From an uncultured Gammaproteobacteria bacterium (GTDB taxonomy: Bacteria > Patescibacteriota > Microgenomatia > Levybacterales > GWA1-39-11), in assembly GCA_964409875.1 (NCBI GenBank), contig CAYPEN010000001.1:292275-356274 (forward strand): a DNA stretch of 64,000 nt, in the 5' to 3' direction. The position numbers were made by a program, and so were the translations under genes. The notes beneath the pieces were generated by a model, which saw only the letters and a program-made list of their open reading frames with translations, made no database searches and had not been told where the DNA came from. Shown here in pieces: positions 15,747-64,000 of this stretch. Positions within the stretch are counted from its first letter, which is position 1, and each line of letters opens with the position of its first letter.

Positions 15747-15747
15747 C

Positions 15748-30756: not shown

Positions 30757-30953
30757 CTATGCCACAAAGAAAAATAAGCAAAGCTTGTTTCTCTTTGTTT
30801 GAGATAAAGACGTAATATATTGTAAAGAAAAATAAGCAAAGCTTGTTTCTCTTTGTTTGAGATAAGGACGTAATATGTTGTAAAGAAAAATAAGCAAAGC
30901 TTGTTTCTCTTTGTTTGAGATTATAAAAAATTAACTATGCCACAAAGAAAAAT
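30748..30953 (+). repeat. 58-bp tandem repeat (2.5 copies: 30775..30832, 30833..30890, 30891..~30921) bracketed by a 28-bp direct duplication (30748..30775 and 30926..30953) of the atpA stop / atpG start region
   Basis: The unit is taagcaaagcttgtttctctttgtttgagataaagacgtaatatattgtaaagaaaaa; copy 2 has two substitutions. The duplicated 28-mer aaaaattaactatgccacaaagaaaaat includes the atpG ATG, so a decoy MPQRKISKACFSLFEIKT mini-ORF begins at 30759. Confidence 0.85.
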
Positions 30954-31824: not shown

Positions 31825-33333
<1,509 letters not shown>

Positions 33334-33341
33334 GAAAAGAT

Positions 33342-33644
33342 ATGGCGGATAAGTTATTCCATGTAAAAGTTAGGGATACCGAGAATCTTATTTTCGAGGG
33401 AGAAGTCGAAAGGATAAGTTCTTTTAATGAAGTAGGCCCGTTCGATATATTTCCCATGCATGCAAATTTTATTTCAATACTGCATCAAGAAGTGTCTCTT
33501 TACAAGGATAATCAAAAGGTAAAAGAATTAAAGTTTGAGCAAGCAGTACTGAAAGTAAAGCAGGATGTTGCTCATATCTTTTTAGGCATAGAGGTGCTTT
33601 TTGTTGAAAGTACTACCCCTCTCAATGCGCAAAGTTCCTCCTAA
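33342..33644 (+). CDS. atpC: F-type ATP synthase subunit epsilon
   Basis: A 100-aa ORF at the last position of the operon, beginning MADKLFHVKV... like an epsilon beta-sandwich. Confidence 0.75.
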   Translation: MADKLFHVKVRDTENLIFEGEVERISSFNEVGPFDIFPMHANFISILHQEVSLYKDNQKVKELKFEQAVLKVKQDVAHIFLGIEVLFVESTTPLNAQSSS

Positions 33645-33716
33645 TAAATCATCATAATAACAGGTTATTTAAGCTTACCGAACCATATATATACTCAGAA
33701 TTGAGTTTTTTATTGA

Positions 33717-33740
33717 TATAACTGCAAATACTGCAATACA
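33717..33740 (+). promoter_or_regulatory. Second copy of the taactgcaaa[a/t]actgcaataca motif. It lies 73 nt after atpC and about 390 nt upstream of the giant gene.
   Basis: See 22941..22963. Confidence 0.3.
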
Positions 33741-34132
33741 AGTTGCAATTTAGCCTGAAATTAAGGCATTTCACAAGACTTTTCATAGTTTGAAAAATAA
33801 ATTGAATTATTTTGTAAACAATTTTTTTTCTTTTCATGATGAGAAAATTAAATAACGTGAAAAGTCTTATGACTATAAGATAATTTCACAGATAGATTAT
33901 TTCCTAAAAAAATAAGAATTTTTTTTATAACCATAACTACATCAATCTATATCATACTGAGCAACCATTTTTTCATAATTTTTCTCCCCCTGATGCAGGT
34001 TTAATTTTTTTTATAAAAATCAGTATAGTTTGTTACACTTCTTTCCATTTCGTTGCGTTGACTAAATTTGTAAAAAAAAGTTACAGTAGATGTACACCCG
34101 TTTTAGCAATTGGTGATGACCCAAACTCATCA

Positions 34133-34297
34133 ATGAAATTATTAACTTTAAAGCAGGCGGCCCGTATGCTGGGCGTCTCTCTTGAGACTCTACAGTATTT
34201 GGCCAACAGATATGGTCTAAGCCCCGTAGTCAATGACAGGGGTGAATTTTACTACGAAGAAGACAAACTTCGAGCACTTCTTGAGACAGCAGAATCT
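34133..34297 (+). other. N-terminal helix-turn-helix-like segment (MerR/excisionase-type pattern) of the giant protein
   Basis: MKLLTLKQAARMLGVSLETLQYLANRYGLSPVVNDRGEFYYEEDKLRALLE has the LxxxEaAxxLGVSxxTlxxwxxxG pattern of HTH_17/MerR-family N-termini. Confidence 0.4.
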
Positions 34298-37200
34298 ACA
34301 TACCGCAAGTTCACACAAAACAAGGCAACTATAGGTCAAAAAAAGAGCTTTTTTCAAAATCATGAAAACTCAGAAGCCTCAACTGGTTCTCCTGCAGCTC
34401 CATTAAAGGGCGAAACCAAATGGGAACTCTTTGTTAAATTTACCTACCTCCGGCCTGGAAAAAGAGCTATTGTTTTAGGGGTCATCACCTTAGCTCTTAT
34501 ATTCTCTTTGGGATACGCTCAAGTATCTCTTCTCAAGCTAAAAGCTCAAAAAGCCAATAATGCTTTCAATGCACTTGAGGATACGAGCTCAAAAGTTCTC
34601 GGTGCAGCGACGAGTAAGCTGAAATTAACCGGTAACATTCTCTTTAGCCTGCCTTTAGTTTCGAAGGAGAATGTAGCTATCGGAAAAGAACTTCAGGTAA
34701 CGGGGAAGAGTTTTTTCAAGGATGACATTACTGCACCTAATGTCGTGTATGGAATAACAGCAGGAGGAGGAATTACAATTTCCGGTGATGCGCAAAATCC
34801 GGTCATTTCTGCCGTTCAAGGTGGAGTTACATCACTACAGGGTACCACAGGTGACGTAACCCTTAAGGCTGGAACAGATATTTCGATTTCCGGACTTACA
34901 ATAAGCGATGCTTCTACCCTTTCCACGGTCGTTTCACGGGGAGATTGCACGGGATGTATTACCGATGCGGCGGTAGTAAATACTCTTACCATCGACTCGG
35001 GAGGCCAAGTAGCCGCAGGTGCCATTAAGGGAACTCTTACGACGTCGGTTGGAGGAACCGGACTCAGCACGTATGCAACGGGTGATTTGATATACGCTTC
35101 TTCAACAGACACTCTTGATTCACTTCCAATCGGAGCCGCCGGTCAATTTTTGACGGTTTCAAACGGGCTTCCCGCTTGGGCTTTTGTGAGTTCTTTTGCA
35201 GTTGCCAACGTTAAAGAAAACAACGTAATCATCTCTTCTCAGACGAACACTCTTAACTTCGCAAATAGTGATTTCGATCTTACCGAAAGTCCCGCAGGTC
35301 AAGTCAATATTCAACTTGCCCCTACACCGCCTTCGATAACAGGGGTAGTGAGCAATTTCTCCGTTGGTGGAACCGCAATCACATTTTCTACTAGCGGTTC
35401 GATAACTTCTGCCGGTGCAAATGCATTGACGCTCGATACGGGAACTACTGGAACCCTCAATCTTGGAACCAGTAATAATGCTAAGACTGTTAATATAGCA
35501 ACCGGTAATGCGGGCAACACCGTAAATATTGCAACTGACAACACTGTAGCAGACACCATCAATATCGGCTCGGCGCTTGATACCAACAATCTAAATTCCG
35601 GCTTGGTATATGTCCCGAATGGACGTGTAGGAATAAAAGCGTTGCCTAACGATGTTGATGCAGACACCAATCCTTTTGCCCTTGAGGTAGCAGGGAGTAT
35701 CGGTCCGAATGCGGACGGTGTTTATGATTTGGGTTCTCCGTCATTGAGGTACCGCAACTTGTATATTACGGGGGCGACAACCTCAAATGGAGACATTACG
35801 ATAGCCAATAATTCACCGAAAATTTATTTCATTGATACCGACGTGGGCCAAAACCAGTACCTGGTAAACGTGGACACCTCACAGTTCACGCTTAAAAACA
35901 ACACCACGGGGGCTACGGCCCTCTTTGTCGATTCTAATGGGGATGTGTCTTTGGCCGGAGGATCTGCCTCAACGGGGTGTACAATAGCCGATGCAACCGG
36001 AAATCTGGTGTGTGCCGGAAGCATAACGACCTCCAATACTTCGGGTACGGTTGGGTTCTTCTCACGCAATAACGGTACATCCACCATTTCTCCTGCAACT
36101 TCAGGTGATAATATTTCAACTTCGGGTAATATCCTGACGACGGGAACAGGAACAATTACCTCCGCAGGACTCTTGACTGCTTCAAACGGTTTGACTGTTA
36201 CAGCAGGCGGAATTAACGTAAATAGCACCGGCATTACAAATGCAGGGGATATCCTCGGAGCGGGGGCTATTTCTGCAAGCGCCGCGTTGACATTTACGGG
36301 AACAGGTACAAACATTACAACGGTTTCAAATGCTGATTTGACTATTGGTGCCAATGGAAGCGGACAGCTTGTCATTTCGAGCAATGTTCTTCTTGGGACT
36401 CTTCCGGGAGCAGGAGTGTCGGCAACTACTTTGTGCCGAGATAACACAACTCACCAAATTACCCAGTGTCCAGCGAATGCGTCAAATGTTTCGTTGCAGG
36501 ACGCATATAATGCAGGCAATACAATCAATACCTCTGACAACCGCGACATTGCTTTTACCCTGACCGATACCGCAACCGACTCAAAGTTCATGCTTACCAA
36601 CCAGGGCACCGCAACAGCTTTCACCATAAATGACACAAATGCTGCGGTTAACACGCTTCTTTCGATTCAGTCAAATGGTACTCCTACTCTAACAATTGAT
36701 GAAAATGGCGTAGTTTCAACTTCCGGCAATATTGCAACAACTGGAACTGGAACAATTACCTCTGCCGGACTTCTTACAGCCTCAAACGGGTTAACAGTTT
36801 CAGCTGGTGGAATATCGGCAAACGGTGGCATTAACAACAACAATGGGGGAATTACCAATGCCGGTGACCTTTTAGGAGCTGGGGCAATTTCTGCGAGCGC
36901 CGCATTAACTTTTACAGGAACAGGTCCCAACATTACAACCGTTTCTGATGCGGACTTAACAATTGCGCCAAACGGCTCAGGGCAAATCATCCTCTCCAAC
37001 AATGTACTTCTCGGAACGCTTCCCGGAGCTGGTGTTTCTGCTACCACTCTTTGCCGAGACAATACCTCCCATCTTCTGACACAGTGCCCAGCAAATGCGG
37101 CAAATGTTTCACTGCAAGATGCATATAACGCAGGGAACACTATAAATACATCAGACAACCGCGATATCGCTTTTACCTTGACCGATACCGCAACCGACTC

Positions 37201-40200
37201 AAAGTTCACGCTTACCAACCAGGGCACCGCTACCGCTTTCACAATCAATGACACGAATGGTGCGGTTAACACCCTTTTGTCCGTACAATCCGGCGGCACG
37301 CCAACATTAACTATTAATGAGAACGGAGTCCTTTCAACCAGCGGCAGCATCTCAACTACCGGTACGGGAAGCATTACAAGTGCGACTACTTTGACCGCAC
37401 AAGGTACCACCAACCAACTCGTTCTCGGAAATGGGAACACTACAACCATCAATTCCCTTGCACCTGCAAGCGCAAGGATTGCAACAATCCCGGGTTTGAC
37501 CATTAATGACACTTTCCTCTTTGCAACCGAGTCAGCGCTTGTTTCCAACAAGACTTTCAGGGACAACTCGACCAATTTCCAGGACGAGCTTGATAACACG
37601 AAGCAATTCTCATTTGATGCAAGTCTTATCTCAACGGGCGTTACAAGAAAGATACAAATTCCTGATTACGACGGGACTGTTTGTTTGACGACCGGTAACT
37701 GTGCAGGGTCAGGCGGAGTTGTCGGAGGAAACGGTACCCTTAATCACTTAGTGAAATTCACTATTACCGGTTCGACAATCGGAGACGCGAATCTCACAGA
37801 CAATGGAACAGTTGTGAATGTTCTTTCGGGACTGAATGTCGGTGACCAGACAGGTTCTGATACGTTGTCGGTTCTAAGACTTTTGGACGCAACCGGCGGA
37901 AGCCAAATCCAGAACTCAAATCTTCTCACGCTTCAAGGTGCATATTGGACGGGGGCGGTTTCGCAAAGTGTCGGGTTCTCGTTGCAAAATGTGGTAACCG
38001 CTACTACACCAACTTACAAATTGTCATTCCAAAATGATGGTGGCTCGGAAGTCGCAAGTATTGCCAACAACGGAAATGTCGCGTTAACAGGAACCGTAAC
38101 CGGCGCAACCGGCCTTACTTCCTCAGGAACAATCACATTCTCCGGACTTACCAATAACGGTCCGGTGTATACAACGGCAGGAGGAGTGTTGAACTCCGAG
38201 ACTCTTCTCTCTCCTGTAAGAGGCGGAACGGGCGTTGACTCCTCTTCTGCAGCAAACGGGGCAATTCTTATCGGAAATGGAACAGGGTTTACTCTCGCAA
38301 CTATCACCGGTACTGCAAATCAAGTAAATGTTGCAAATGCGGCAGGAAGCATTACTCTTTCGACTCCACAGGATATTGCAACCTCCTCCACTCCGACGTT
38401 TGTCTCACTTACGTTGTCAAATGCGACTAACCAGTTGGTATTGGGCACTGGCAACACTACAACCATTACCTCTCCGGCTCCCGGTGCTTCAAGAGTTGCT
38501 ACCATTCCAACGCTTGCCGGCAATGACACATTCGTATTTGAGAGCCAGACTCAAACACTTACAAATAAAACCATCGGCTCAACAGGGCTTGTCTTCTCAG
38601 GGGCTGCAACGGACATCACTACCGTTTCAAACGAAGACCTGACATTATCAGCCGACGGGCTTGGTGAGATAGTTCTTTCAAATGTGACCAAAATTCCAAA
38701 CCTTTCAGGAACGGTTGGTGCTACTGTTGTCTGCCGGAATGCATCAAATGAGTTCTCTATTTGTTCATCAAATGCTCTCAACGTTACGCTACAGCAAGCA
38801 TATAATGCGGGCAACACGATCTTGGCATCCGACTCGGAGGGCAACATCGACTTTACATTAGCCGACCTTTCCTCCAGGGCACTGACAGTTACCAATGCAG
38901 GAAGTGCATCATCGGCTCTTGTTATAAACGACACGAATGCATCGGTTCAGAATGCTCTCGAAGTACAGTCTAGCGGCTCAGCAACTCTTACTATAAATGA
39001 GAATGGAAATATCTCAACTGTTGGAAATATTTCAACAACCGGTACGGGAACGATTACGAGCGCCGGTCTTCTTACTGCGTCAAACGGTTTGACAGTGACC
39101 GCAGGAGCAGTCAATATTGCGGGTTCGTCAGGTGTAATCAATCTAACCGGTTTGACAGCCCTGACAATAGATGCAGGAGTCAACAACCTCCTCTTTACCG
39201 GTGGCAATTTCAGTACCACAGCAACAGGCATCAACGGAACGGCAATTGGCGCAACTACCCCGTCAACCGGTAACTTTACCAACTTAACAACGACTTCCAA
39301 TGCTTCGTTCTCGGGCAATCTAACTCTTGCAGGGGCTCCAAGAAGCATCCAGACGACCGAAAACAACACGTTGACCATTGGTGGTGATACGACGGGAAAT
39401 ATTGTTCTTGCACCTCTCAATGGAACAGGAATCCTTACCGTTAATGGAAATACTGTTAATGTCGGAAGCTTTGATGTTAATGGTGTATCAACTTTCAATA
39501 ATAATATTACCCAGTCAGGAGCTTTCACATTCTCAACCGGAACAGGTGCAGTTTCACTGAATGGTAATACATCCGTTACGGGCACTAACACATTCACTGT
39601 TGCGGGTGGTGCTACATCTTTGGGGTCGACACTGGACGTGACCGGGATAACAACTTTGAAGAATGATGTATTTGTAACATCCGACCGGTTCTTCAATGCA
39701 TCAGGGTCGGCTATATTTACTCCGTCGGGTACGAATTCTGTCGTATTCAATACAAATTCAAATGCTAAAGTTCAATTCAACGGCCTTCAGACCGTTAACG
39801 GTAATTCCCTTTGTGTGGACGGCTCAAATTACCTGGTAGTCTGTAACGGAGCGCCATTCGGTCTTCAGGCGGCATATAATACCGGAAACACCATTAACAC
39901 GTCTGATGCCCGAGACATCGCATTCACTCTTTCAGACACCGCTACCGACTCAAAGTTCATTTTGACCAACGAAGGGACAGCAACAGCTTTCACTATCAAT
40001 GACACCAATGCTGCAACCAACACCCTTTTAGACATCCAATCGGGAGGTGTTTCGAAGTTAACTATCAATGAGAATGGAGTCCTTACAACTTCTGGCAACA
40101 TCTCAACGACCGGAACCGGAACTATAGCTTCGGCAGGACTTTTGACCGCTTCCAACGGATTAACATTAACAACCGGTGCATTAAATCTGACCGCTACATC

Positions 40201-58200: not shown

Positions 58201-61200
58201 TGCATTCAACCTGTCTGATACGGCAACTGACAGCAATTTCACGGTTACAACTGCTAACGGCTCAACGGGCACGTCCATATTTGCGCTGCAAGATGGGGTT
58301 TCAGCAACTGCTCCAGACCAGTTGGTGCTTATCGACAACCAGGACACCGACCTTACGCTTCCAGCGGGTATTAAAGTCACCTCCTCAGGGGGGGGAGCTA
58401 TAACAACAGCGCTTGACCTTTCTGCAAGTGCCATTGTGAATGCGTTATCCCTGGGGGCAAATGACGTTACGGCTACCAATTTCTCATTCACTGGATCAAA
58501 TGGTAACTTCTCAACAAATGGCACTATAACGGCAACCGGGAATGTCAATGCTAATTCGGGAACACTTGCTACAACCAACGCCACTGGAAACCTCTTCAAC
58601 ACCAATGCAACAACCCTTAATATTGGTGGCGCCGCAACAACCTACACATTGGGTGCAACAACGGCAACAGGCAACATAAGGGGTACGAGCATAAACTTCC
58701 CTAATGCGACTGCTCTTGATGCGCTTTCAGCATTGGCAAGAGTTGACTCACTGCAAGTCGGCGGAGGCTATGGTTCGACTGGACTCACCATTTCAAATAC
58801 CGGCAACATTTCTGCCAATGGAACGTTGACCATTGACAGCACATCAACCCTAACAGGGGATGTTACAGCTGCTGCAAATGTTGCTGTCAATGGAGGAACC
58901 CTATCAACCACCAACGCAACTGGAAACCTCTTCAACACCAATGCAACAACTCTTAATATCGGTGGTGCTGCGACAACAGTTTCATTAGGAGCCGGAACCG
59001 GAACAACTACTGTTAACAATGACCTTGCAATAACCGGAACGACGACTTCAACCGGACTTGTTACTGCAAATGGAGGGCTTACCGTTGCAACGGGCCAAAC
59101 CTTGACGGCAAACGGCGCGTCAACCTTCTCTCCTGATTCAACCAATGATGTAACATTTAATACTGACGCAGACTCAACGGTTAAATTCGTTGGCCTTCAA
59201 ACTACCTCCGGCACAGCTCTTTGTCTTGACGGCTCAAGCAATCTTGTTTACTGCACTGGTGCTCCATTTGGTTTGCAGGCGGCATACAACACCGGAAACA
59301 CGATTAACACATCAGACGCCCGTGATATTGCGTTCACTCTTTCAAATACGACAACCGACAGCAACTTCACGGTTACCACCGCTACAGGCTCAACCGGATA
59401 CTCAGCATTTACCCGGGCAAATGGTGCCGGGACAGCTGACCCAACGCAGTTGGTACTCATCCAGAACAACGACACCGACCGCGCTCTTCCGATTGGTCTT
59501 AAAATTGCAGGAGTATCAGGAGGGGTTGTTGCCACCGCAATTGATTTGTCAGATAGCAACATTACGACTGCCCTTTCTCTTGGAGCAGCCGATGTCACCG
59601 CTACAAATTACTCGATAACAGGCGCAACGGGTAACATTACGACAACTGGTGACATTGCAGTAAACGGCGGCGACCTTACGACTACAAATGCTTCTGCTAC
59701 ATTATTTAATACAAATGCCACAACCTTGAATATCGGAGGTGCGGCAACGACTTTGACCCTTGGAGCATCAACAGGAACCGCAACCATTGCAAACGGCACC
59801 GTTACGCTTTCTAATGCCACCGCTTTTGACGCGCTTACCGCACTTGCCAGGGTTGACTCACTTCAGGTTGGTGGCGGATATGGCTCAACGGGCGTGACCA
59901 TCTCAAATGCAGGAGCAATTCAGGCAAACGGAAATCTCACTATTGATGGTACATCACAATTAACCGGCAACGTTACAACCTCTGGAGACCTTGCAGTTAA
60001 CGGTGCCGGAAGTGCTGACATCACGACAACAACCACTACCGCTACTCTCTTCAATGCCAACGCAACAACTCTTAATATCGGCGGCGCTGCTACGAATGTT
60101 ACACTTGGTGCAGGTGGAGGTTTAACAACTCTTAACAATAACCTAACTGTTAATTTAACCGACAACAATACAGATGCGCTGGATATTCAAGAAGGGTCAA
60201 ATAATTACATCAACATTAATACAACGGATAGCTCTGAGAACATTTCGTTCGGAAATGTGACGACCAACCCTACCTACAATTTCCTCGGAACAGGTCTTAC
60301 AACATTAGGTGGTAATTTGGCTGTTAATGGAGGTTCTGTCACAACGACACAAGCAACGGCAAATCTCTTTAACACCAACGCCACGACTTTGAATGTCGGC
60401 GGCGCTGCAACTGTTTTAACTCTAGGTGCTTCGACCGGTACTGCGACAATAAACAATGCAAATGTTTCACTACCCAATGCAAAGCTTGGTGTCGGAACCG
60501 CTGCTCCAATTTCTGCATTATATGTTACCCGCCCACTTTCACTTGCCGTAACAGGAAAGTCTTTGGCTATTTTAGATCAACTTGAAAATCAGGATATATT
60601 CACTGCCTCTGCATCAGGTGTAACCCGCTTTACGATTGCCAATAATGGAGACGTTACGGCAAATGGGAACATAACCGCTTCAGGAAATGTTGCGGTTAAT
60701 GGAGGCACCCTCTCAACAACCCAGACAACGGCAAATCTCTTTAACACCAACGCCACGACTTTGAATATAGGCGGCGCTGCAACAGCACTCAATTTGGGCG
60801 CATCAACAGGAACCGCAACCGTAAATAATCTCACCGTTAACTTTGCAAATGCAACAGCATTCGACGCGTTGTCTGCCTTGGCACGTGTCTCTTCACTTCA
60901 GGTGGGCGGAGGATACGGCTCCACGGGTGTAACAGTATCCTCCGCCGGGGACATTCAAGCAAACGGTGCATTAACAGTTGATGGAGTCTCTACTTTGACG
61001 GGGGATGTAACCGCAGGCGGAGATTTGGCTGTCAATGGTGCAACATCTGCCGACATTACGACAACGACAACTACAGCTACATTATTTAATACCAATGCAA
61101 CGACTCTTAATATCGGTGGTGCTGCAACAACCCTTTCTCTCGGAGCAGGTTCTGGCACAACAACAGTTAACAACAATGTATCGGTTTCAGGAACCACAAC

Positions 61201-64000
61201 CTCAACGGGTCTTATCACTGCAAACGGTGGGTTGACCGTTGCCTCAGGCCAGACTTTGACCGCAAATGGCTCTGTTGCACTAGACCCCAACGGCGCAAAT
61301 GACATTGCTATCACAACTGATTTTTCTGCAGGTTCTTACCTTAATATCACCGGCCTTGACACCCAAACCGGTAACACACTTTGTATTGATGGGTCAAATA
61401 ATGTCGTGAAATGTTCTGCCGCCTCAATCACCTTACAAACTGCATACAACGGTGGCAACACAATCAATACTTCGGATAATAGAGATATATCATTCAACCT
61501 AACCGACACTACAACCGATAGTAACTTTAACGTTACAACAGCAACCAATTCAACAGGTTACAGCGCGTTCACCAGGGCTGACGGCGCGGGAACTGCGGAC
61601 CCAACACAGTTAGTTCTTATCAAGAATCTTGACACCAACCGTGCACTCCCAATTGGCCTTAAGATTGCTGGGGTCAGCGGAGGAAATGTCACAACTGCAT
61701 TGGATTTGTCGGATAGCAATATCACAACAGCAATTTCACTGGGAGCCAACAATGTGTCGGGTACCAATTTCTCAATAACGGGTAGCACAGGCAACATTAC
61801 AACTTCAGGAGATATTGCAGTTAATGGTGGGGACATAACTACAACAAACGCGACAGCTACCCTATTCAACACGAATGCTACCGACCTTTCTATTGGTGGC
61901 GCAGCAACAACTCTTACCCTTGGCGCATCAACAGGAACCGCAACGGTAAATAATCTCACCGTTAACTTTGCAAATGCAACAGCATTCGACGCGTTGTCTG
62001 CCTTGGCACGTGTCTCTTCACTTCAGGTGGGCGGAGGATACAGCTCCACGGGTGTAACCGTATCCTCCGCCGGGGACATTCAAGCCAACGGCAACCTCAC
62101 CATTGATGGCACGTCGCAATTAACCGGCAACGTAACAACATCGGGCACTATCAATGCCAATGGAGGAACCATCGCAACAACCCAAACAACAGGTAACCTT
62201 TTCAACACGAACGCTACCACGCTTAATATCGGTGGCGCAGCAACCACGGTAAGTCTTGGCGCCTCAACCGGGACGAGTACTATCAATAACAATTTGTTGG
62301 TTTCGGGAACTTCAACGTTCAATGGTGATGTGCTCATTTCAAATGACCGTTTCTTCAACGCATCAGGAAGCGCGATATTTACACCTGAAGGCACCAATGG
62401 CGTAACAGTCAACACAGACTCCGATTCGTTCTTAACCCTTACTGGTCTTACAACTCCCGGTGTTGCCGGAACAGCTCTCTGTATTGATGCTTCAAACAAT
62501 GTCACCAAGTGTTCTGCCAACACCATAACTCTTCAGTCCGCATACAATGGCGGCAATACAATTACCACTTCAAACGGACGTGATATAGCACTCACCTTAA
62601 CAAATGCCAATCTTTCAGCGACCACTTCTGCTGGCTCTAACGGATTTACTCAGTTTGCCCTTGCCAATGGTACTAACACCAATCCTGCAAACCAGCTCGT
62701 TTTAGTTGAGAACTTAGACACAAACGAAGCGCTTACAACAGGTATTAAGGTGCAATCCGCAGCAGGTGGCATCACAAATGGCATCGACCTCTCTGATCCG
62801 GAGATTGTAAACGCTCTTGCGTTAGGTGCGAATGACGTTGTTGCAACAAACTTCTCTATTGCAGGTGCAACAGGCAACATTACGACGGCAGGCGACATAG
62901 CGCTTAATGGTGGAGATCTTACGACAACATCAACTACTGCTACACTTTTCAACACAAATGTAACGGACCTTTCCATTGGGAGCGCAGCCACAACACTAAC
63001 GCTTGGCGCATCAACAGGTACAGCGACAATAGCAAATGCTACTGTTGATTTCTCAAATGCAACGGCATTTAACGCGCTTTCTGCTTTGGCAAAAGTTGAC
63101 TCACTTCAGGTTGGTGGCGGATATGGCTCAACGGGGGCAACCATTTCAAACACCGGCAATATTCAGGCAAATGGAACACTTACCGTTGATGGAACCTCTA
63201 CCCTTACGGGAGATGTGACCACCAGTGGAGATCTAGCAGTAAATGGTGCATCATCGGCTGACATTACAACGACAACCGCAACTGCTACTCTCTTTAACAC
63301 AAACGCTACAACCCTTAACATAGGCGGTGCTGCCACTACTGTTTCGCTTGGCGCTGGAACTGGAACAACTACGGTAAATAACAACCTATCAATTACAGGG
63401 ACGGAAACGAGTACCGGTCTTGCGACATTCAATGGGGGTGCAACGGTTGCAACCGCTCAGACGTTTACGGCAGGTGGTCAGTCGACATTCTCGCCTGACA
63501 ATACGAATGGTGTTACTATCAACACTGACGCTGATTCTTTCCTGACTATTGCTGGGCTTCAAACCGCCACCGCAAGCACGCTTTGTATTGACGGTTCAAA
63601 CCATGTAGTTAAATGTTCAGCCGCATCAACGACCTTGCAGTCTGCTTATAACGGGGGCAATACAATTTTGACGTCAGATGCGAGGGATATTGCCTTTACA
63701 CTTTCCGATACCACAACAGACAGTAACTTTGCTGTAACAACTGCAACAGGCTCGACCGGATACTCGGCATTTACTCGAGCAGATGGGGGTGGCGCTGCCG
63801 ACCCAACCCAACTTGTTCTCATTCAAAACCTTGATACCAATAGAGCTCTTCCAATAGGTCTTAAGATTGCTGGCGTTTCAGGTGGAAATGTAACCACAGC
63901 ATTGGATTTGTCAGACAGCAATATTACAACTGCAATTGCACTAGGCGCAAACAACATATCAGCAACTCATTTCACACTTACCGGCAGCAACGGCAATATT
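34133..64000 (+). CDS. Giant repetitive membrane-anchored surface protein, 3'-partial. At least 9,956 codons lie in the window and the ORF continues past the right edge.
   Basis: Translating from the ATG at 34133 (frame 2) gives no stop through 64000. No plus-strand ORF in this frame appears in the track, consistent with an ORF that never terminates inside the window. Coding periodicity and the repeat structure fit this frame only. The ectodomain composition is dominated by T, G, N, A, S and L. Confidence 0.85.
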   Translation, partial: MKLLTLKQAARMLGVSLETLQYLANRYGLSPVVNDRGEFYYEEDKLRALLETAESTYRKFTQNKATIGQKKSFFQNHENSEASTGSPAAPLKGETKWELFVKFTYLRPGKRAIVLGVITLALIFSLGYAQVSLLKLKAQKANNAFNALEDTSSKVLGAATSKLKLTGNILFSLPLVSKENVAIGKELQVTGKSFFKDDITAPNVVYGITAGGGITISGDAQNPVISAVQGGVTSLQGTTGDVTLKAGTDISISGLTISDASTLSTVVSRGDCTGCITDAAVVNTLTIDSGGQVAAGAIKGTLTTSVGGTGLSTYATGDLIYASSTDTLDSLPIGAAGQFLTVSNGLPAWAFVSSFAVANVKENNVIISSQTNTLNFANSDFDLTESPAGQVNIQLAPTPPSITGVVSNFSVGGTAITFSTSGSITSAGANALTLDTGTTGTLNLGTSNNAKTVNIATGNAGNTVNIATDNTVADTINIGSALDTNNLNSGLVYVPNGRVGIKALPNDVDADTNPFALEVAGSIGPNADGVYDLGSPSLRYRNLYITGATTSNGDITIANNSPKIYFIDTDVGQNQYLVNVDTSQFTLKNNTTGATALFVDSNGDVSLAGGSASTGCTIADATGNLVCAGSITTSNTSGTVGFFSRNNGTSTISPATSGDNISTSGNILTTGTGTITSAGLLTASNGLTVTAGGINVNSTGITNAGDILGAGAISASAALTFTGTGTNITTVSNADLTIGANGSGQLVISSNVLLGTLPGAGVSATTLCRDNTTHQITQCPANASNVSLQDAYNAGNTINTSDNRDIAFTLTDTATDSKFMLTNQGTATAFTINDTNAAVNTLLSIQSNGTPTLTIDENGVVSTSGNIATTGTGTITSAGLLTASNGLTVSAGGISANGGINNNNGGITNAGDLLGAGAISASAALTFTGTGPNITTVSDADLTIAPNGSGQIILSNNVLLGTLPGAGVSATTLCRDNTSHLLTQCPANAANVSLQDAYNAGNTINTSDNRDIAFTLTDTATDSKFTLTNQGTATAFTINDTNGAVNTLLSVQSGGTPTLTINENGVLSTSGSISTTGTGSITSATTLTAQGTTNQLVLGNGNTTTINSLAPASARIATIPGLTINDTFLFATESALVSNKTFRDNSTNFQDELDNTKQFSFDASLISTGVTRKIQIPDYDGTVCLTTGNCAGSGGVVGGNGTLNHLVKFTITGSTIGDANLTDNGTVVNVLSGLNVGDQTGSDTLSVLRLLDATGGSQIQNSNLLTLQGAYWTGAVSQSVGFSLQNVVTATTPTYKLSFQNDGGSEVASIANNGNVALTGTVTGATGLTSSGTITFSGLTNNGPVYTTAGGVLNSETLLSPVRGGTGVDSSSAANGAILIGNGTGFTLATITGTANQVNVANAAGSITLSTPQDIATSSTPTFVSLTLSNATNQLVLGTGNTTTITSPAPGASRVATIPTLAGNDTFVFESQTQTLTNKTIGSTGLVFSGAATDITTVSNEDLTLSADGLGEIVLSNVTKIPNLSGTVGATVVCRNASNEFSICSSNALNVTLQQAYNAGNTILASDSEGNIDFTLADLSSRALTVTNAGSASSALVINDTNASVQNALEVQSSGSATLTINENGNISTVGNISTTGTGTITSAGLLTASNGLTVTAGAVNIAGSSGVINLTGLTALTIDAGVNNLLFTGGNFSTTATGINGTAIGATTPSTGNFTNLTTTSNASFSGNLTLAGAPRSIQTTENNTLTIGGDTTGNIVLAPLNGTGILTVNGNTVNVGSFDVNGVSTFNNNITQSGAFTFSTGTGAVSLNGNTSVTGTNTFTVAGGATSLGSTLDVTGITTLKNDVFVTSDRFFNASGSAIFTPSGTNSVVFNTNSNAKVQFNGLQTVNGNSLCVDGSNYLVVCNGAPFGLQAAYNTGNTINTSDARDIAFTLSDTATDSKFILTNEGTATAFTINDTNAATNTLLDIQSGGVSKLTINENGVLTTSGNISTTGTGTIASAGLLTASNGLTLTTGALNLTATSGSLSLSGLSASSLNFGANDLTITANNFNTTATGINGTAIGATTPSTGNFTTLTTTGNASFSGNLTLAGAPRSIQTTEFNTLTIGGNTTGNITLSPQNGLGVFTINGSTVISGANTLTVGTGATTLGGTLDVAGIATFTNNISQTGATTFSTGTGNVSLNGNTSVTGTNTFTVGTGLTTLGGNFLAQGTASISGGLTLFGTPSIQSTADQTLTIGGDTTGNIILTPLNGIGIVTVNGNVVDTGTFTVNGVSTFNNNISQTGASTFSTGTGNVSLNGATSVTGTNTFTVGTGATTLGGTLDVTGVATFNNDVSQTGAHTFSTGTGAISLNGATTVAANTAFLVSAGSGSVDFKNTSGITIGEDIAGGTNNTPGTIKLWSQGDNAYSTTITTATQTQNITFTLPPDDGIANYVLVTDGNGVLSWQSTSGIGAGTITAVGNVTSGTAFTGSDSSSNKGNILIFEGSTTVDDANDITVTAVNPVSSITYTLPDIGTNGTFAFLEGTQTFTGAKTFSDLTISDTNIPFTGGDTTFDITGAATRTLSLVNSTVGQVANLELTDGDLLTAGTSRLTNAGALQNITGYTQTSGNFSIAGAGTFSTGTGSISLNGNTSVTGTNAFTVGTGLTTLGGDLLTNGTASVSGALTLFTTPTIQATDLQALTLGSATTGQLNLFNNTYVLGTSNFTVGTGATTLGGTLDVAGVATFTNNISQTGVTTFSTGTGNVSLNGNTSVTGTNTFTVAGGATSLGSTLDVTGITTLKNDVFITSDRFFNASGSAVFTPSSDNDVVFNTDNNSTVIFNGLQTAAGSKICIDGSNNLVLCASQGGTLQQAYNEGNTINTSDARDIAFTLSDTATDSKFILTNEGTATAFTINDTNAATNTLLDIQSGGVSKLTINENGVLTTSGNISTTGTGTITSAGLLTASNGFTVTTGAVNITGTSGALNLTGLTAATIDAGVNNILITSANFNTTATGINGTAIGATTPSTGNFTTLTTTGNASVSGNLTLAGAPRSIQTTEFNTLTIGGNTTGNIVLSPQNGLGLFTINGNTVVSGTNTLTVGTGATTLGGTLDVAGVSTFTNNITQTGASTFSTGTGAVSLNGNTSVTGTNTFTVGTGATTLGGTLDVAGVATFTNNISQTGATTFSTGTGVVSLNGNTSVTGANTFTVGTGLTTLGGNLIANGSASISGALTLFGIPTIQTTDFQNLTLGGGQTGGIVLNSGTVVNGGNTFTVGTGATTLGGTLNVAGVATFTNNISQTGATTFSTGTGVVSLNGNTSVTGTNTFMVAGGATSLGSTLDVTGITTLKNDVFVTSDRFFNASGSAIFTPSGTNSVVFNTNSNAKVQFNGLQTVNGNSLCVDGSNYLVVCNGAPFGLQAAYNTGNTINTSDARDIAFTLSDTATDSKFILTNEGTATAFTINDTNAAVNTLLSIQSNGTPTLTIDESGALSTSGSITTTGTGTITSAGLLTASNGLTLTTGALSLTATSGSLNLTGLSSSTLDFGANDLTITANNFNTTATGINGTAIGATTPSTGNFTSLTTTGNASFSGNLTLAGAPRSIQTTEFNTLTLGGDTTGNITLSPQNGLGVFTINGSTVISGTNTFTSGTGAVTLNGATSITGTNTLTVGTGATTLGGTLDVAGVATFTNNISQTGATTFSTGTGNVSLNGNTSVTGTNTFTVGTGLTTLGGDLIANGTASISGGLTLFSIPIIGTTDLQALTLGTGTTGQINLATNTYVLGTSTFSVGTGATTLGGTLDVAGVATFTNNISQTGATTFSTGTGNVSLNGATTVTGTNAFSVNGGPTTLGSTLDVTGITTLKNDVFVTSDRFFNASGSAIFTPSTNNNVVFNTSATERVQFNGLQTVNGNSLCVDGSNYLVVCNGAPFGLQAAYNTGNTINTSDARDIAFTLSDTVTDSKFILTNEGTATAFTINDTNAATNTLFDIQSGGVSKLTINENGALSTSGNILTTGTGTITSAGLLTASNGLTVTTGAVNITGTSGALNLSGLGASLIDAGTNNLLVTSGAFTVDATGINTTAIGVTTPKQATFTTLSSLSDTSIATGAGAILNAGNTTGAVTINGSNVTINANGTGNGIAFGLPVDSPNAFSVSESTNGYINVDTSTGAENVSFGNTNTNPTFQFQGTGATTFGGDVAVNGGVLSTTAVSASLFNTNATTLNIGGAATTVTLGANTGTTTVNNALAVTDSVTVTPNNATGIALNPFGVAAGNTAEAQFYELAANGSEYTGFKAPDSLAATVVYTLPSAAAGAADYVLTYQNGGLLEWKSANLLAGDITAVGDVLTGDAFTGTDAGNNLYFQGATVDSFSIDLQGADATQNETIVLPANSGTVTLLQPRFAQTATGTQPLLFLNEAGASTPNLIQLQVASNDVFTVDNSGNVAIAGATVSSTGSTVNLFNTVTSTLNIGGAATTVSLGAGTGTTTVNNALTSTGLITANGGLTVANGQTLTVDGIANIGDGGDAVALNGTTITLTANGAGNDITANLVDNNTDALDIQQGTNNYLNIDTTDGSENITFGNATTNPTFTFLGTGLTTHGGSIAVNGGDITTTAGTANIFNANATTVNIAGAATALSLGASTGTTSINNNAVVTGDLAVNGASSADITSTTATATVFNSGVTNLSIGNAATTLSIGASSGTTTVNNALTITGATTANGTFTANNQVTLQPSGTNGVTIVTDGNSFLTIPGLTTPVASNSTLCIDASDNVVKCPPSASTLQSAYNGGNTIFTSDGRDVAFTLTDTTTDSKFTIHTATGSTAGTEFVREDGAGTADPTQLVLIDNADIDRILPIGIKITSSGTSGVTTALDVSDPTIVTAIALGANDVTGTNFSVTGSNGNITSAGDIAVNGGDVTTTNATATLFNSNATSLSIGGAATTLTLGANNAGTATIANATVTLSNATAFNALAALAKVDSLEVGGAYGSTGVTISNAGDVQANGALTIDGTSTLTGDITSSGDLALNGSDITTTSNGTATLFNTNATTLNIGGAATTISLGAGSGTTTVNNSLSVVNDLTTTGNVTFTPTAASNESITFNTSSTEKLFVTGLPTATGTLVCIDGVTSQITKCAADAISLQSAYNGGNTIATSNARDIAFTLSDTATDSNFTVTTADGSTSYSAFTRANGTGTSDPTQLILVNNLDTNRPVPTGIKISSTGGGGITTGLDVSDATITTGIALGASSISGTNFSVAGGTGNITSAGDIAVNGADITTTSTGTATVFNTNATTLNIGGAATAYTLGATTATGNIRGTTINFPNATAFDALSALARFDSIQAGGGYGSTGVTISNTGNIQANGTLTVDSTSTLTGAVTASNGITVSGVASADLISSKTTANLFNTTATTLNIGGAATTISLGAALGTTTANGSLSVVDDLTTTGNVTFTPTASSNESITFNTSSTEKFFVTGLPTATGTLVCVNDSDGQITKCASDAISLQSAYVGGNTITTSNARDIAFTLSDTATDSNFTVTTADGSTSYSAFTRANGTGTADPAQLVLIDNADTDRILPIGLKISSSGGGGITTALDLSDASIVTAIALGANDITGTNFSVNGTNGNITSAGDIAVNGSDITTTSNAAASVFNTNALTLNIGGAATTYTLGATTATGNIRGTTINFPNATTINAGSAALTIDNAIIGGGYGSTGVTISNAGDIQGNGNLTIDGTSTLTGNITSSGDLALNGGDLTTTAATATLFNTNATNLSIGGAATTVSLGASGGTTTINGSLTVNENLTSTGNVTFTPPASSGNSITLNTSSTENLFITGLPTATGTLVCVDNSTGQITKCAPDAISLQSAYNGGNTIQTSDNRNIAFTLTDTATDSKFTVGVAAGSTGDIEFTRNAGSGTADPTQLVLIKNNQTRALPIGLKIAGVASGAITTALDLSDSNITTAIALGANSISGTHFTLTGSNGNIATDGNIAVNGGNITTTTSSVSIFDTNATTLTLGNAATSLTIGATTGTATIRNQTISFPNATALDALSALTRVDSLQVGGAYGSTGVTISNIGDIQANGALTIDGTSTLTGNVTVGGDVAVNGGDLTTTQLSATLFNTNATTLNIGGAATTVSLGAGTGTTTVNNALTVSGATTANAGFTANGASTFTPGVGNSVTINTDSTNTSYLTVTGLGTAAGTVVCIDGSNNIVKCNAATTSLQAAYNSGNTILTSNARDIAFTLTNTASDSNFVVTTATDSTGGTQFIRADGAGTNDPNQLVLIDNADADRILPTALKITSSGGSGVTTALDVSDASIVTAIALGANDITGTNFSVNGTNGNITSAGDIAVNGSDITTTSTGTATVFNSNALTLNIGGAATSYTIGATTATGNIRGTTINLPNATTFAASLAAASFDSLTIGGGYGSTGVTVSNAGDIQANGNLTIDGTSTLTGNITSSGDLALNGGDLTTTASTATLFNANATTIRLGEGATAISVGGPNSTVSLHNDLRVNGVATFDGGATVSANRSFTANGPVTVNQNNGSDIVFNLDYTAGSYLTLAGLETPGVAGAALCLDGSNQVTKCGGATFSLQSAYNGGNTINTSDNRDIAFTLSDTSTDSNFTVTTAADSTGYSAFTRANGGSGTNPSQLVLIQNLDTSNALPIGLKIAGVSGGNVTTALDLSDANITTAIALGVNNVSGTHLTITGSTGDITTDGDIAVNGGDITTTSGTATLFNTGATNLSVGGAATTLTLGATTGTASIRNTTVSLPNATAFDALSALARVDSLQVGGGYGSTGVTISNTGNIQANGTLTIDGTSTLTGNVTAAANVAVNGGSLTTTAATGNLFNANATTVNIAGGASAVNIGGTGTTTINNNLAVTGTSTFTGTATANGDFVANANSTFSPTGTDTVTINTTGTALLKITGLQTAAGDLLCIDSGTNQVEKCAATSISLQGAYNGGNTINTSNNRDIAFTLSDTATDSNFTVTTATGSTGYSAFTRQDGVGAADPTQLVLIQNLDTNRALPIGLKIAGVSGGNVTTALDLSDTFITTAIALGTNNVSGTNFSINGSSGNITTSGDVAVNGGNLTTTQATANLFNANATTLNIGGDGTNITIGAAIGTTTINNATVSFANATAFNALSALAKVDSLQVGGGYGSTGVTISNTGNIQANGTLTVDDTSTLTGDTTVGGTLGVTGATTLSSTLAVTGDTTLTGDLAVNGGDLTTTAATFNLLNANATTVNFAGAATSLTLGATTGTASIRNLTVSLPNATAFDALSALARVDSLQVGGGYGSTGVTISNTGNIQANGTLTVDGISTLTGNVTAASDVAVNGGDLTTTNASATLFNTNATTLNIGGAATTVTLGAGGGLTTLNNNLTVNLTDNNADALDIQEGSNNYININTTDSSENISFGNVTTNPTYSFLGNGAATFDGNINANSGTIATSQTTGNLFNTTATTLNIGGAATALTLGASTGTATINNATVVAPNSKFGIGTATPISALFVTRPLTLGATGKALTILNQIENQDIFTASSSGTTRFTIANNGDVTANGNITTTGNVAVNGGSLTTSQATANLFNTNATTLNIGGAATTVSLGAGTGTTTVNNNLAITGTTTATGLATFNGGATIATGQTLTANGASTFSPDSTNDVTFNTDADSTVKFNGLQTVNGNSLCLDGSNNLVICNGAPFGLQAAYNTGNTINTSDNRDISFTLSDTATDSNFTVTTATGSTGYSAFTRQDGVGAADPTQLVLIQNNDTDRALPIGLKIAGVSGGNVTTALDLSDTNITTAIALGTNNVSGTNFSITGSTGAITTSGNVAVNGGTLSTTNATGNLFNTGATTLNIGGAATTYTLGATTATGNIRGTTINFPNATSISAGSAALTIDSLSVGGGYGSTGVSISNTGDIQANGNLTVDGTSTLTGDVTAGGDLAVNGATSADITTTTTTATLFNTNATTLNIGGAATTVSLGAGSGTTTVNNALTATGLITANGGATIATGQTLTAQGQSTFSPNSTNGVTINTDADSFLTITGLSTATANTLCIDGSNHVVKCSASSITLQSAYNGGNTIDTSDARDIAFNLSDTATDSNFTVTTANGSTGTSIFALQDGVSATAPDQLVLIDNQDTDLTLPAGIKVTSSGGGAITTALDLSASAIVNALSLGANDVTATNFSFTGSNGNFSTNGTITATGNVNANSGTLATTNATGNLFNTNATTLNIGGAATTYTLGATTATGNIRGTSINFPNATALDALSALARVDSLQVGGGYGSTGLTISNTGNISANGTLTIDSTSTLTGDVTAAANVAVNGGTLSTTNATGNLFNTNATTLNIGGAATTVSLGAGTGTTTVNNDLAITGTTTSTGLVTANGGLTVATGQTLTANGASTFSPDSTNDVTFNTDADSTVKFVGLQTTSGTALCLDGSSNLVYCTGAPFGLQAAYNTGNTINTSDARDIAFTLSNTTTDSNFTVTTATGSTGYSAFTRANGAGTADPTQLVLIQNNDTDRALPIGLKIAGVSGGVVATAIDLSDSNITTALSLGAADVTATNYSITGATGNITTTGDIAVNGGDLTTTNASATLFNTNATTLNIGGAATTLTLGASTGTATIANGTVTLSNATAFDALTALARVDSLQVGGGYGSTGVTISNAGAIQANGNLTIDGTSQLTGNVTTSGDLAVNGAGSADITTTTTTATLFNANATTLNIGGAATNVTLGAGGGLTTLNNNLTVNLTDNNTDALDIQEGSNNYININTTDSSENISFGNVTTNPTYNFLGTGLTTLGGNLAVNGGSVTTTQATANLFNTNATTLNVGGAATVLTLGASTGTATINNANVSLPNAKLGVGTAAPISALYVTRPLSLAVTGKSLAILDQLENQDIFTASASGVTRFTIANNGDVTANGNITASGNVAVNGGTLSTTQTTANLFNTNATTLNIGGAATALNLGASTGTATVNNLTVNFANATAFDALSALARVSSLQVGGGYGSTGVTVSSAGDIQANGALTVDGVSTLTGDVTAGGDLAVNGATSADITTTTTTATLFNTNATTLNIGGAATTLSLGAGSGTTTVNNNVSVSGTTTSTGLITANGGLTVASGQTLTANGSVALDPNGANDIAITTDFSAGSYLNITGLDTQTGNTLCIDGSNNVVKCSAASITLQTAYNGGNTINTSDNRDISFNLTDTTTDSNFNVTTATNSTGYSAFTRADGAGTADPTQLVLIKNLDTNRALPIGLKIAGVSGGNVTTALDLSDSNITTAISLGANNVSGTNFSITGSTGNITTSGDIAVNGGDITTTNATATLFNTNATDLSIGGAATTLTLGASTGTATVNNLTVNFANATAFDALSALARVSSLQVGGGYSSTGVTVSSAGDIQANGNLTIDGTSQLTGNVTTSGTINANGGTIATTQTTGNLFNTNATTLNIGGAATTVSLGASTGTSTINNNLLVSGTSTFNGDVLISNDRFFNASGSAIFTPEGTNGVTVNTDSDSFLTLTGLTTPGVAGTALCIDASNNVTKCSANTITLQSAYNGGNTITTSNGRDIALTLTNANLSATTSAGSNGFTQFALANGTNTNPANQLVLVENLDTNEALTTGIKVQSAAGGITNGIDLSDPEIVNALALGANDVVATNFSIAGATGNITTAGDIALNGGDLTTTSTTATLFNTNVTDLSIGSAATTLTLGASTGTATIANATVDFSNATAFNALSALAKVDSLQVGGGYGSTGATISNTGNIQANGTLTVDGTSTLTGDVTTSGDLAVNGASSADITTTTATATLFNTNATTLNIGGAATTVSLGAGTGTTTVNNNLSITGTETSTGLATFNGGATVATAQTFTAGGQSTFSPDNTNGVTINTDADSFLTIAGLQTATASTLCIDGSNHVVKCSAASTTLQSAYNGGNTILTSDARDIAFTLSDTTTDSNFAVTTATGSTGYSAFTRADGGGAADPTQLVLIQNLDTNRALPIGLKIAGVSGGNVTTALDLSDSNITTAIALGANNISATHFTLTGSNGNI
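34466..34534 (+). other. Single predicted transmembrane anchor of the giant protein (aa ~112 to 134)
   Basis: AIVLGVITLALIFSLGYAQVSLL is preceded by RPGKR (positive-inside), so the large C-terminal part is predicted to be outside the cell. Confidence 0.6.
39648..40014 (+). repeat. 367-nt intragenic exact repeat, copy 1. Copy 2 is at 44091..44457, 4,443 nt downstream.
   Basis: Compared base by base across all six sequence lines; no mismatch seen. It covers the LCVDGSNYLVVC...TINTSDARDIAFTLSDTATDSKFILTNEGTATAFTINDTNA module. Confidence 0.85.
50784..50916 (+). repeat. 133-nt intragenic exact repeat. Copy 2 is at 52917..53049.
   Basis: Identical on inspection (SDASIVTAIALGANDITGTNFSVNGTNGNITSAGDIAVNGSDIT). 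Confidence 0.8.
54902..55002 (+). repeat. 101-nt intragenic exact repeat. Copy 2 is at 57110..57210, and the flanks are also highly similar.
   Basis: Identical on inspection. The same antisense pseudo-ORF peptide SLCQILQLTVTSLSLPQQAQQVTAHLPGKMALVLQ is reported twice in the ORF track (54891..55127 and 56997..57230). Confidence 0.8.
60801..60965 (+). repeat. About 165-nt near-identical intragenic repeat (about 4 mismatches). Copy 2 is at 61926..62090.
   Basis: By inspection: ...LTVNFANATAFDALSALARVSSLQVGGGY[GS]STGVTVSSAGDIQANG. Confidence 0.75.

Follow-up and report, generated by a model that had tools for sequence, protein, structure and literature searches.

Bacterial genes longer than 30 kb have been reported from Omnitrophota and other phyla of the Planctomycetota-Verrucomicrobiota-Chlamydiota (PVC) group, from Actinobacteriota, Myxococcota and Margulisbacteria, and from Clostridia; Patescibacteria are not among the groups highlighted there (bioRxiv 10.1101/2023.11.21.568195). 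In the same source, the Omnitrophota-type giants are described as carrying numerous transmembrane (TM) regions, SecA DEAD domains and many enzymatic domains (bioRxiv 10.1101/2023.11.21.568195, West-Roberts et al. 2023). Giant repetitive adhesins, among them the RTX adhesins SiiE and LapA of type I secretion systems (T1SS), the Gram-positive Ebh/Embp, a 7,651-aa adhesin of Mobiluncus and Giant1-5 of Apilactobacillus, are single huge polypeptides of tandem modules that extend outward from the cell, serve attachment and occupy a large share of a small genome (PMC12863079, PMC10619420). The present analysis concerns a giant open reading frame (ORF) starting at position 34133 of a 64,000-nucleotide stretch of contig CAYPEN010000001.1 (assembly GCA_964409875.1, positions 292,275 to 356,274 of the forward strand; hereafter the window) and still open at its end. 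We class this gene among the giant repetitive surface fibres, and it is unusual in its phage tail-fibre modules, its helix-turn-helix (HTH)-TM anchor and its synteny with the ATP synthase genes.

Compared with the Omnitrophota-type giants, the gene falls in the same 'large' class (>30 kb, >10,000 aa), is likewise hidden by assembly fragmentation, occurs in an ultra-small, probably host-dependent bacterium, and has a product predicted to be extracellular and of adhesion type; this product differs in that it has a single TM segment, is built on one type of repeating module, and carries neither a SecA domain nor an enzymatic one. An earlier note on this DNA, made from the sequence alone, had ranked the protein among the largest in bacteria, which is right for the class of 10,000-30,000 aa and not overall, proteins of up to 85,804 aa having been reported (bioRxiv 10.1101/2023.11.21.568195). 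Pfam and NCBIfam scans of ten 1,000-aa slices covering all 9,956 visible residues returned the HTH and sub-threshold noise only. As the earlier note had stated, no enzymatic motif was recognisable in these scans (SecA included), and no family of the Hep_Hag, RTX, cadherin, collagen or LPXTG type matched even at E ≤ 1.

The protein shares with the giant repetitive adhesins both the single tandem-module polypeptide and the large share of a small genome. In contrast to them, its visible part has no Ig-like, cadherin, FIVAR or RTX repeats, LPXTG motif or T1SS signal, and the protein is anchored by an N-terminal signal-anchor that follows an HTH. The BIg/cadherin-like domains, RTX nonapeptides and T1SS signal of LapA, SiiE and MpIBP were thus unmatched in the visible 9,956 aa. 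The Hep_Hag/HIM heads, coiled-coil stalk and YadA anchor of trimeric autotransporters gave no match either and, to our knowledge, Patescibacteria have no outer membrane that could hold a YadA-type anchor. Serine-rich repeat/LPXTG adhesins, whose name NCBI gives to one relative (P0010), differ in composition (Ser 8.9% versus Thr 19.8% in the window protein) and in their KxYKxGKxW signal peptide, in place of which the HTH comes first here, and no LPXTG match was found in the visible part. A literature search for giant proteins in Patescibacteria, Levybacteria and Microgenomates returned no description of a giant fibre family of this architecture.

Translation of the plus strand from the ATG at 34133 yielded 9,956 residues with zero stops up to the window edge, the closest upstream in-frame stop lying at 33905. 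The probability of such a stop-free run, computed from the gene's own base composition, was about 1e-222, and the remaining five frames of the region contained 131-936 stops. The visible portion of the protein has a mass of 979 kDa, a pI of 4.05 with an acidic ectodomain, and a composition dominated by T (19.8%), G (12.9%), A (11.3%), N (10.4%) and S (8.9%), with K, R and E at about 1% each. Hence the single ORF of at least 9,956 codons and the T/G/N/A/S-rich product described in the earlier note were both recovered, and the repeat motifs that it quoted are real and recurrent (LFNTNATT-type, 33 times; GYGSTG, 12 times; TVGTG.TTLG, 13 times). Its remark that the gene is GC-richer than its neighbours, driven by ACN, GGN and GCN codons, also held: the excess is confined to codon position 2 (GC of 0.56 versus 0.33-0.39 in neighbouring genes), while GC at codon position 3 (GC3) equals that of the neighbours (0.39), so that amino-acid usage rather than foreign origin drives the shift. 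Antisense ORFs of 100-395 aa are present within the gene (35311-62991, minus strand; e.g. 54961-56148, 395 aa). They were rejected as genes and regarded as shadow ORFs, since the ACN/GGN/GCN codon bias leaves that frame with just 131 stops over 30 kb.

The giant ORF is a genuine gene and not an assembly artefact. In an independent metagenome-assembled genome (MAG), CAZMSF01, two contigs are collinear with positions 48600-64000 of the window at 77% nucleotide identity: one (L006) aligned with 48600-61214 as a single high-scoring segment pair of 12,642 nt, and the first 2,841 nt of the other (L005) aligned with 61160-64000. The two proteins shared 91.5% of residues over 4,202 aligned codons; gaps were confined to 21 columns, and the frame was never broken. 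The proportions of synonymous and non-synonymous differences (pS = 0.68, pN = 0.063) place synonymous sites near saturation and correspond to a ratio of non-synonymous to synonymous substitution rates (dN/dS) of about 0.04, indicating a protein-coding gene under strong purifying selection and conserved module by module. The divergence of the repeat copies, this collinear ortholog and the low dN/dS together establish a single real giant gene, as the earlier note had proposed.

Contig 17 of CAZMSF01 (L005 and L009, 23,254 nt read) was stop-free and open at both ends, and the ortholog extends at least 20.4 kb beyond the point matching the window edge. For this reason, the full gene probably measures no less than 50 kb, coding for 16,760 aa or more, if collinearity with the ortholog continues past the 15.4 kb compared. 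Orthologous giant ORFs, which the earlier note had suggested looking for in other genomes, were found not only in CAZMSF01 but also in OZ246394.1, a 1.61-Mb chromosome record (10,845 aa), CAZHDZ01 (10,708 aa), CAZDOJ01 (10,251 aa) and JBPOIT01 (9,853 aa), all stop-free and open at both ends of the DNA read. An exact 60-mer from the 3' end of the window was absent from Joint Genome Institute (JGI) metagenome contigs, and look-ups with AtpC, AtpD and GyrB for DNA beyond the window edge gave short Logan contigs only.

The N-terminal cytoplasmic segment and single TM anchor described in the earlier note were both supported; the segment is not featureless, as it carries a MerR_1/HTH_17-type HTH that had been missed. 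The Pfam match to PF13411 (MerR_1) spans residues 5-52 and profile positions 2-49 of 69 (E = 3.5e-6; 27.5 bits versus a cut-off of 21.6), and AlphaFold2 (AF2) modelled it as strand-helix-helix-hairpin-helix with a predicted local distance difference test score (pLDDT) of about 70. Residues 113-131 form the sole strongly hydrophobic segment (Kyte-Doolittle hydropathy over 19 residues, KD19, of 2.14), only one other stretch, inside a repeat domain, exceeding 1.6; the AF2 helix spans residues 110-162, and orthologs have a hydrophobic segment at the same place. As the HTH stands at the very start with no preceding signal peptide, the N-terminus should stay cytoplasmic and the remainder should be exported, giving a type II (N-in) topology with a cytoplasmic HTH head of about 110 aa, one TM signal-anchor and an exported remainder. 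In the AF2 model of the first 600 residues (mean pLDDT 38), the HTH and the TM helix alone exceeded a pLDDT of 50.

Beyond the helix, a conserved membrane-proximal region (residues 135-620) contains the motifs SKLKLTG.I.F.LPL, ITAPNV.YG, CxxC at 272/275 and VGGTGL.TY..GDLLYAS..L..LP.G..GQFL; it had no PDB or Pfam match and its AF2 confidence was low. Orthologs of the HTH, TM and proximal regions, from Woesebacteria, Levybacteria and unnamed contigs, were 34-89% identical over aligned positions (alignment A3), and the two for which DNA was fetched (L001, L002) end at the contig end. The same head is found in a Woesebacteria MAG (L034) and in the Levybacteria protein P0010, whose ectodomains were unmatched by the repeat profiles of the giant protein, and the anchor thus seems to be a mounting device that can be reused. 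In comparison with MerR regulators, the HTH is of the same N-terminal type and above the cut-off, but leads into a variable linker and then a TM helix instead of the dimerisation coiled coil and C-terminal effector-binding domain of a soluble protein. The order of cytoplasmic HTH of DNA-binding type, one TM segment and extracytoplasmic part is that of ToxR/CadC-type regulators and of the MerR-like chromosome anchor RacA. ToxR and CadC have OmpR-type winged helices and small sensor domains; the RacA match was weak (E = 0.03; 14.4 bits, far under the 265-bit cut-off).

The huge ectodomain of degenerate repeats announced in the earlier note could be resolved into five types of unit (G, Z, R, Y and D; Table 1). 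Zone A comprises about eight G domains of about 175 aa, in each of which AYN.GNTI..SD.RDIAFTL comes after a C-x10-C loop; scattered among them are 18 Z repeats, each 54 aa long (FSTGTG...TVGTGATTLGG). The G-R-Y-R modules of Zone B are 355-370 aa each, three insertions adding Y, R and D units. They combine the G domain with an R repeat of about 50 aa of phage tail-fibre type (AVNGGD.TTT..TA.LFNTNATTLNIGGAATT..LGA.TGT.T.NN) and a Y repeat (...GGGYGSTGVTISN.G.IQANG.LTIDGTSTLTG.). The G-R-Y-R order was kept in every long relative, the largest numbers of units (23 G, 58 R and 32 Y) being those of the 10,845 aa read from OZ246394.1. All 46 cysteines fall into 23 pairs spaced by 3, 6 or 10-11 residues, a short-range pattern compatible with disulphide loops in an exported protein, the loop of the G domain probably being one of them. 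The ectodomain (34535-64000) also has 341 N-x-S/T sequons and 19.8% Thr and could conceivably be heavily glycosylated; the Pfam scan of ORFs in the window identified no glycosyltransferase.

Table 1. Positions of the giant gene, its parts and the adjoining upstream region in the window.
Feature	Coordinates	Strand	Remarks
F-type ATP synthase operon	27912..33644	+	281-aa ORF without Pfam match (27912-28757), then delta, alpha, gamma, beta, epsilon
AT-rich 488-nt intergenic region, atpC to giant gene	33645..34132	+	Promoter-like sites such as TTGACT-18-TACAGT at 34058-34087
Giant ORF	34133..64000	+	9,956 codons, no stop before window edge; dN/dS ~0.04 over 4,202 codons versus ortholog
MerR_1/HTH_17-type helix-turn-helix, aa 1-52, cytoplasmic	34133..34288	+	Pfam PF13411, AF2, conserved in orthologs
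Variable low-complexity cytoplasmic linker, aa 53-112	34289..34468	+	Length and sequence vary among orthologs; AF2 pLDDT ~27-55
Single transmembrane helix, aa 113-131, IVLGVITLALIFSLGYAQV, signal-anchor	34469..34525	+	Peak hydropathy of the protein
Conserved membrane-proximal ectodomain, aa 135-620	34535..35992	+	Alignment A3, 15 invariant columns in 11 sequences
Zone A, aa 630-4100	36020..46432	+	Own hidden Markov model (HMM) map, motif counts, direct-repeat families D4, D9, D10, D12
Exact 368-nt repeat, copy 1	39647..40014	+	Only long exact repeat in the gene
Exact 368-nt repeat, copy 2	44090..44457	+	Only long exact repeat in the gene
Transition region, aa 4101-4726	46433..48310	+	D elements (DALDIQ.G.NNY.NI.T) and first R repeats; own HMM map
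Zone B, aa 4727-9956	48311..64000	+	15 G-R-Y-R modules; collinear with ortholog L006/L005 at 77% nucleotide identity
Representative module, aa 9084-9449	61382..62479	+	Homology-search query; 61250-62479 for structure prediction

The distribution of the R and Y repeats was followed in protein, phage and viral sequence collections. One module retrieved 474 proteins, including fragments of giant relatives. Among the matches, small complete homologs of 245-640 aa possessed a near-identical R repeat (in P0066, DLAVNGGDITTTSTGTATVFNTNATTLNVGGAATTVSLGA) beside an Mtd_N, pectate-lyase-like or Peptidase_S74 domain, ends that are hallmarks of phage fibres and spikes, and the best tblastn segment of R/Y relatives reached 82% identity. 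The module matched the PHROG family phrog_4527, 'short tail fiber' (E = 1.9e-6), phrog_6002 being also related, and tblastn returned an annotated tail fiber of Synechococcus phage S-CREM1 (56% over 69 aa). In IMG/VR, 148 stretches encoded R-Y-R relatives; in the three loci examined (L050, L061, L070), the repeats lie inside ORFs of 1,415-1,845 aa matching tail or virion-structural PHROG families, and in L070 that ORF stands beside terminase and head-tail adaptor genes. The earlier note's suggestion of an undescribed repeat family was therefore only partly upheld: the family is not wholly new, since phage tail fibres contain R and Y as well, although the ectodomain had no Pfam, NCBIfam or PDB match. 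The Mtd link also raised the possibility of a diversity-generating retroelement, which was rejected, as general scans of the window ORFs, with no dedicated search, showed no reverse transcriptase.

The giant protein thus has in common with phage tail fibres the R repeat of about 50 aa and the Y repeat, in places nearly word for word, and presumably a rod-like form with a distal C-terminus. In contrast to them, it is 6-12 times longer or more, is encoded by a chromosomal, atpC-syntenic and compositionally native gene, starts with an HTH and membrane anchor instead of a virion-attachment domain such as Mtd_N, and contains Cys-loop G domains in a fixed G-R-Y-R order. Among the relatives examined, the G domain and this module order occurred only in the cellular giants, the G domain not having been searched alone against viral sequences. 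In the C-termini of giant relatives, which are conserved, no Peptidase_S74 domain was found; the last 600 aa of two of them (L014, L022) had no Pfam match above cut-off, matched phrog_4368, a family of unknown function, and contain a coiled coil weakly like reovirus sigma-1 (E = 0.01).

With moderate confidence, we interpret the protein as a host-owned, N-anchored, tail-fibre-like and probably trimeric fibre of about 1 µm that would serve attachment. Everything after the TM helix would be exported by the Sec pathway, leaving the fibre tethered to the cell membrane, with the membrane-proximal region followed by the G domains and 54-aa repeats and then by the long G-R-Y-R run. Because R and Y are phage tail-fibre repeats, the chain most likely adopts the fold presumed for those fibres, that of an intertwined homotrimeric rod and not of a monomeric beta-solenoid. 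The long tail fibre of T4 extends by about 0.6 Å per residue. At this rate the visible part would reach about 0.6 µm and the predicted full-length protein about 1 µm, longer than the cell, as candidate phyla radiation (CPR) cells are only a few hundred nanometres across. Such a fibre could reach and hold a partner cell or surface, with the distal C-terminus as a putative binding tip. Attachment is also among the roles that the earlier note had put forward as plausible.

Several observations weigh against this interpretation. The 3' end of the gene, hence any binding tip, lies outside the window. Receptor-binding or chaperone domains were not recognisable in the C-terminal regions of the relatives. 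Continued anchoring is putative, and a signal-peptidase-like motif, G-Y-A|Q, is present at the end of the TM helix. The phage link involves short, compositionally biased repeats, the PHROG E-value given above is modest, and a single cultured phage was matched by tblastn. For the probable trimeric state, the only structural evidence is a monomer model with a predicted template modelling score (pTM) of 0.47. This AF2 model of a 410-aa module, built with 22 aligned sequences, was an extended chain (pLDDT 75) in which DSSP assigned just two 4-residue strands. It is suggestive of what one chain taken out of an intertwined fibre would look like, and could equally be a poor model. Foldseek with the same model gave no PDB match and a best BFVD E-value of 0.49, a fold comparison that is meaningless for a model without secondary structure.

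A conventional monomeric beta-solenoid or beta-helix adhesin, similar to filamentous haemagglutinin or bactofilin and with a merely compositional likeness to phage proteins, is an unlikely alternative to the trimeric fibre. The T/G/N/A-rich repeats with alternating hydrophobic positions would fit solenoid rungs, relatives are named 'beta strand repeat-containing protein' by NCBI, and Pfam Bactofilin matched three segments, over some 40 residues at a time and always below threshold (23.2 bits at most, the cut-off being 27.9), which also separates the protein from bactofilins. However, beta-solenoids are usually predicted readily by AlphaFold2, showing a strand ladder, and none appeared here. 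The R and Y repeats match phage fibres in sequence, up to 82%, in proteins with Mtd_N or Peptidase_S74 ends, and no FHA, TPS, pectate-lyase or autotransporter family matched the visible protein in Pfam or NCBIfam. PDB sequence searches with one module, a 26-sequence R profile, the membrane-proximal region and the C-terminus of a relative gave nothing significant. Of the long fibre or beta-helical stalk envisaged in the earlier note, the fibre is thus retained, whereas the monomeric beta-helical stalk was not returned by AF2, and the family scans linked the modules to no known adhesin family.

It seems improbable that the protein builds a layer of the cell envelope, such as a coat resembling an S-layer, a sheath or a matrix, instead of a discrete attachment fibre. 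The conservation of the gene, its selective constraint and its linkage to housekeeping genes would suit a structural envelope component, as would the acidic, Thr-rich and possibly glycosylated ectodomain with its 341 sequons. On the other hand, the repeats are those of rod-like phage fibres, and no SLH or S-layer family matched the visible protein in Pfam or NCBIfam. S-layer proteins are mostly of about 40-200 kDa, far smaller than the giant protein.

A further, speculative proposal, to which we likewise give little probability, retains the micrometre-long phage-derived trimeric fibre and adds a functional HTH, coupling the fibre to DNA as a contact or tension sensor or as a chromosome tether. 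In the first variant, the HTH would control transcription when the fibre engages a host cell, as a giant ToxR-like one-component system; in the second, it would hold the chromosome at the attachment site.

It is very improbable that the gene encodes a structural protein of a phage or prophage, an oversized tail fibre, or that it is mobile and was acquired recently. In favour of this reading, the repeats are common to tail fibres, and a 278-aa ORF 7 kb upstream (26419-27255, between the GH130 gene and the ATP synthase operon) resembles the minor capsid protein XM1 gp53 below cut-off (25.1 bits versus 27), no other phage gene being nearby. However, the flanks are of housekeeping type: the window contains genes for inorganic pyrophosphatase, GyrB, TrmD, RNase III, NusB, RecG, a NUDIX hydrolase, PBP1, a GH130 enzyme and a class I (Trp/Tyr-type) tRNA synthetase, together with the ATP synthase and type IV pilus genes. 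The giant gene lies directly 3' of atpC in L032 and in each of the seven metagenome loci that include upstream DNA (L126-L132), the seven ORFs of the latter being open to the end of the DNA read (one spans at least 3,935 aa). In a Woesebacteria MAG (L001) it is found one gene downstream of atpC, and in a Levybacteria MAG (L002) it stands next to the atp operon in divergent orientation. This synteny is kept although the ATP synthase beta subunits are only 51-91% identical. Moreover, GC3 is native, the N-terminus consists of an HTH and TM anchor and not of a virion attachment domain, and the genes downstream of the relatives' stops are beta-lactamase-like, not phage genes. In the intergenic region between atpC and the giant gene, six promoter-like sites were found versus 4.0 expected; these are consensus matches only and not evidence of function.

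An artefact of assembly, in which collapse, expansion or chimerism of a repeat array mimics one 30-kb gene, is hardly credible and largely refuted: repetitive genes are prone to misassembly, most database relatives are fragments at contig ends, some short database proteins with these repeats are obvious chimeras (P0047, P0070, P0082) and one exact repeat of 368 nt has copies 4.4 kb apart, but the repeat copies are only 60-82% identical in nucleotides and can therefore be placed by short reads, the independently assembled ortholog agrees module for module over 15.4 kb, and several further assemblies contain ORFs of identical architecture that run for more than 29-34 kb without a stop. The 368-nt repeat is the only exact one longer than 150 nt and reflects either a recent gene conversion between two G domains or a possible miscount of the 4.4-kb unit. 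The region 39647-44457 is the only spot where short reads might collapse or expand a unit, and its copy number is the remaining doubt.

The host is a small-genome member of Candidatus Levybacteria (Microgenomates, Patescibacteria), the window GyrB being 90% identical to a Candidatus Levybacteria GyrB. An identical GyrB is encoded on an NCBI contig of 423.5 kb, presumably the one from which the window derives, and the organism also occurs in runs SRR11845619, SRR11845633 and SRR11845634. In line with the dedicated type IV pilus apparatus and small-cell gene repertoire named in the earlier note, a complete pilus set is present at 4196-16407 (PilC of the T2SSF family, PilT-like and PilB-like ATPases, prepilin peptidase, PilM, at least five N_methyl pilin-like ORFs and a weak PilX_N-like ORF), interrupted by a gene resembling DNA polymerase III delta-prime. 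One cell thus encodes both a type IV pilus and the giant fibre. Many records carrying the Levybacteria-type giant gene (L005, L006, L009-L017, L019, L021-L024, L027-L029, L031, L032 and L036) are titled 'uncultured Gammaproteobacteria bacterium'; the ATP synthase genes of one of them, L032, are 79-82% identical to those of the window. This label looks wrong for these MAG records, as it clashes with gene content and with the Levybacteria labels of other relatives.

Protein databases hold practically no full-length members of the family, most likely as a result of assembly breaks within the gene: an exhaustive HMMER search of 1.84 billion representative proteins gave 1,958 matches, and none among the best 150 exceeded 5,657 aa. 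In two ENA contigs of 49 and 145 kb (L043, L044), the homologous giant gene is split into calls of 59-2,600 aa, likely from indel errors if these are long-read assemblies, and splitting of this type would explain why protein databases hold only fragments. In Candidatus Levybacteria contig CAVRKE010000002.1 (L018, locus 11827-13061), a giant ORF stops and a second giant ORF of the same repeat family is open from about 1.2 kb downstream, representing either two tandem giant genes or one gene broken by an error. Convergent Beta-lactamase2-family genes directly follow the giant-gene stop in L014 (16740-17759) and L022 (15413-17037). Three apparent pilin- or enzyme-fused homologs, in which G/R pieces are joined to prepilin plus DnaJ-like, aminotransferase-like or efflux adaptor-like sequences (P0047, P0070, P0082), were rejected as chimeric short contigs of 1-2 kb; they would mislead architecture surveys.

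Patescibacteria (CPR) are tiny and thought to live attached to other cells, and their contact molecules are largely unknown apart from type IV pili. In this group, the giant gene offers a concrete candidate for a host-contact fibre that can be tested. At 50 kb or more, it would fill several percent of the genome, whose size is put at about 1-1.6 Mb (an estimate; Levybacteria records measure 1.14-1.61 Mb). It also represents a cellular reuse of phage tail-fibre building blocks, at about ten times the scale of any phage fibre seen in this analysis. The HTH-TM anchor may serve generally in Microgenomates for mounting giant surface proteins and, if the HTH were indeed coupled to the fibre, a CPR lineage would have domesticated a phage fibre as its host-capture organelle.

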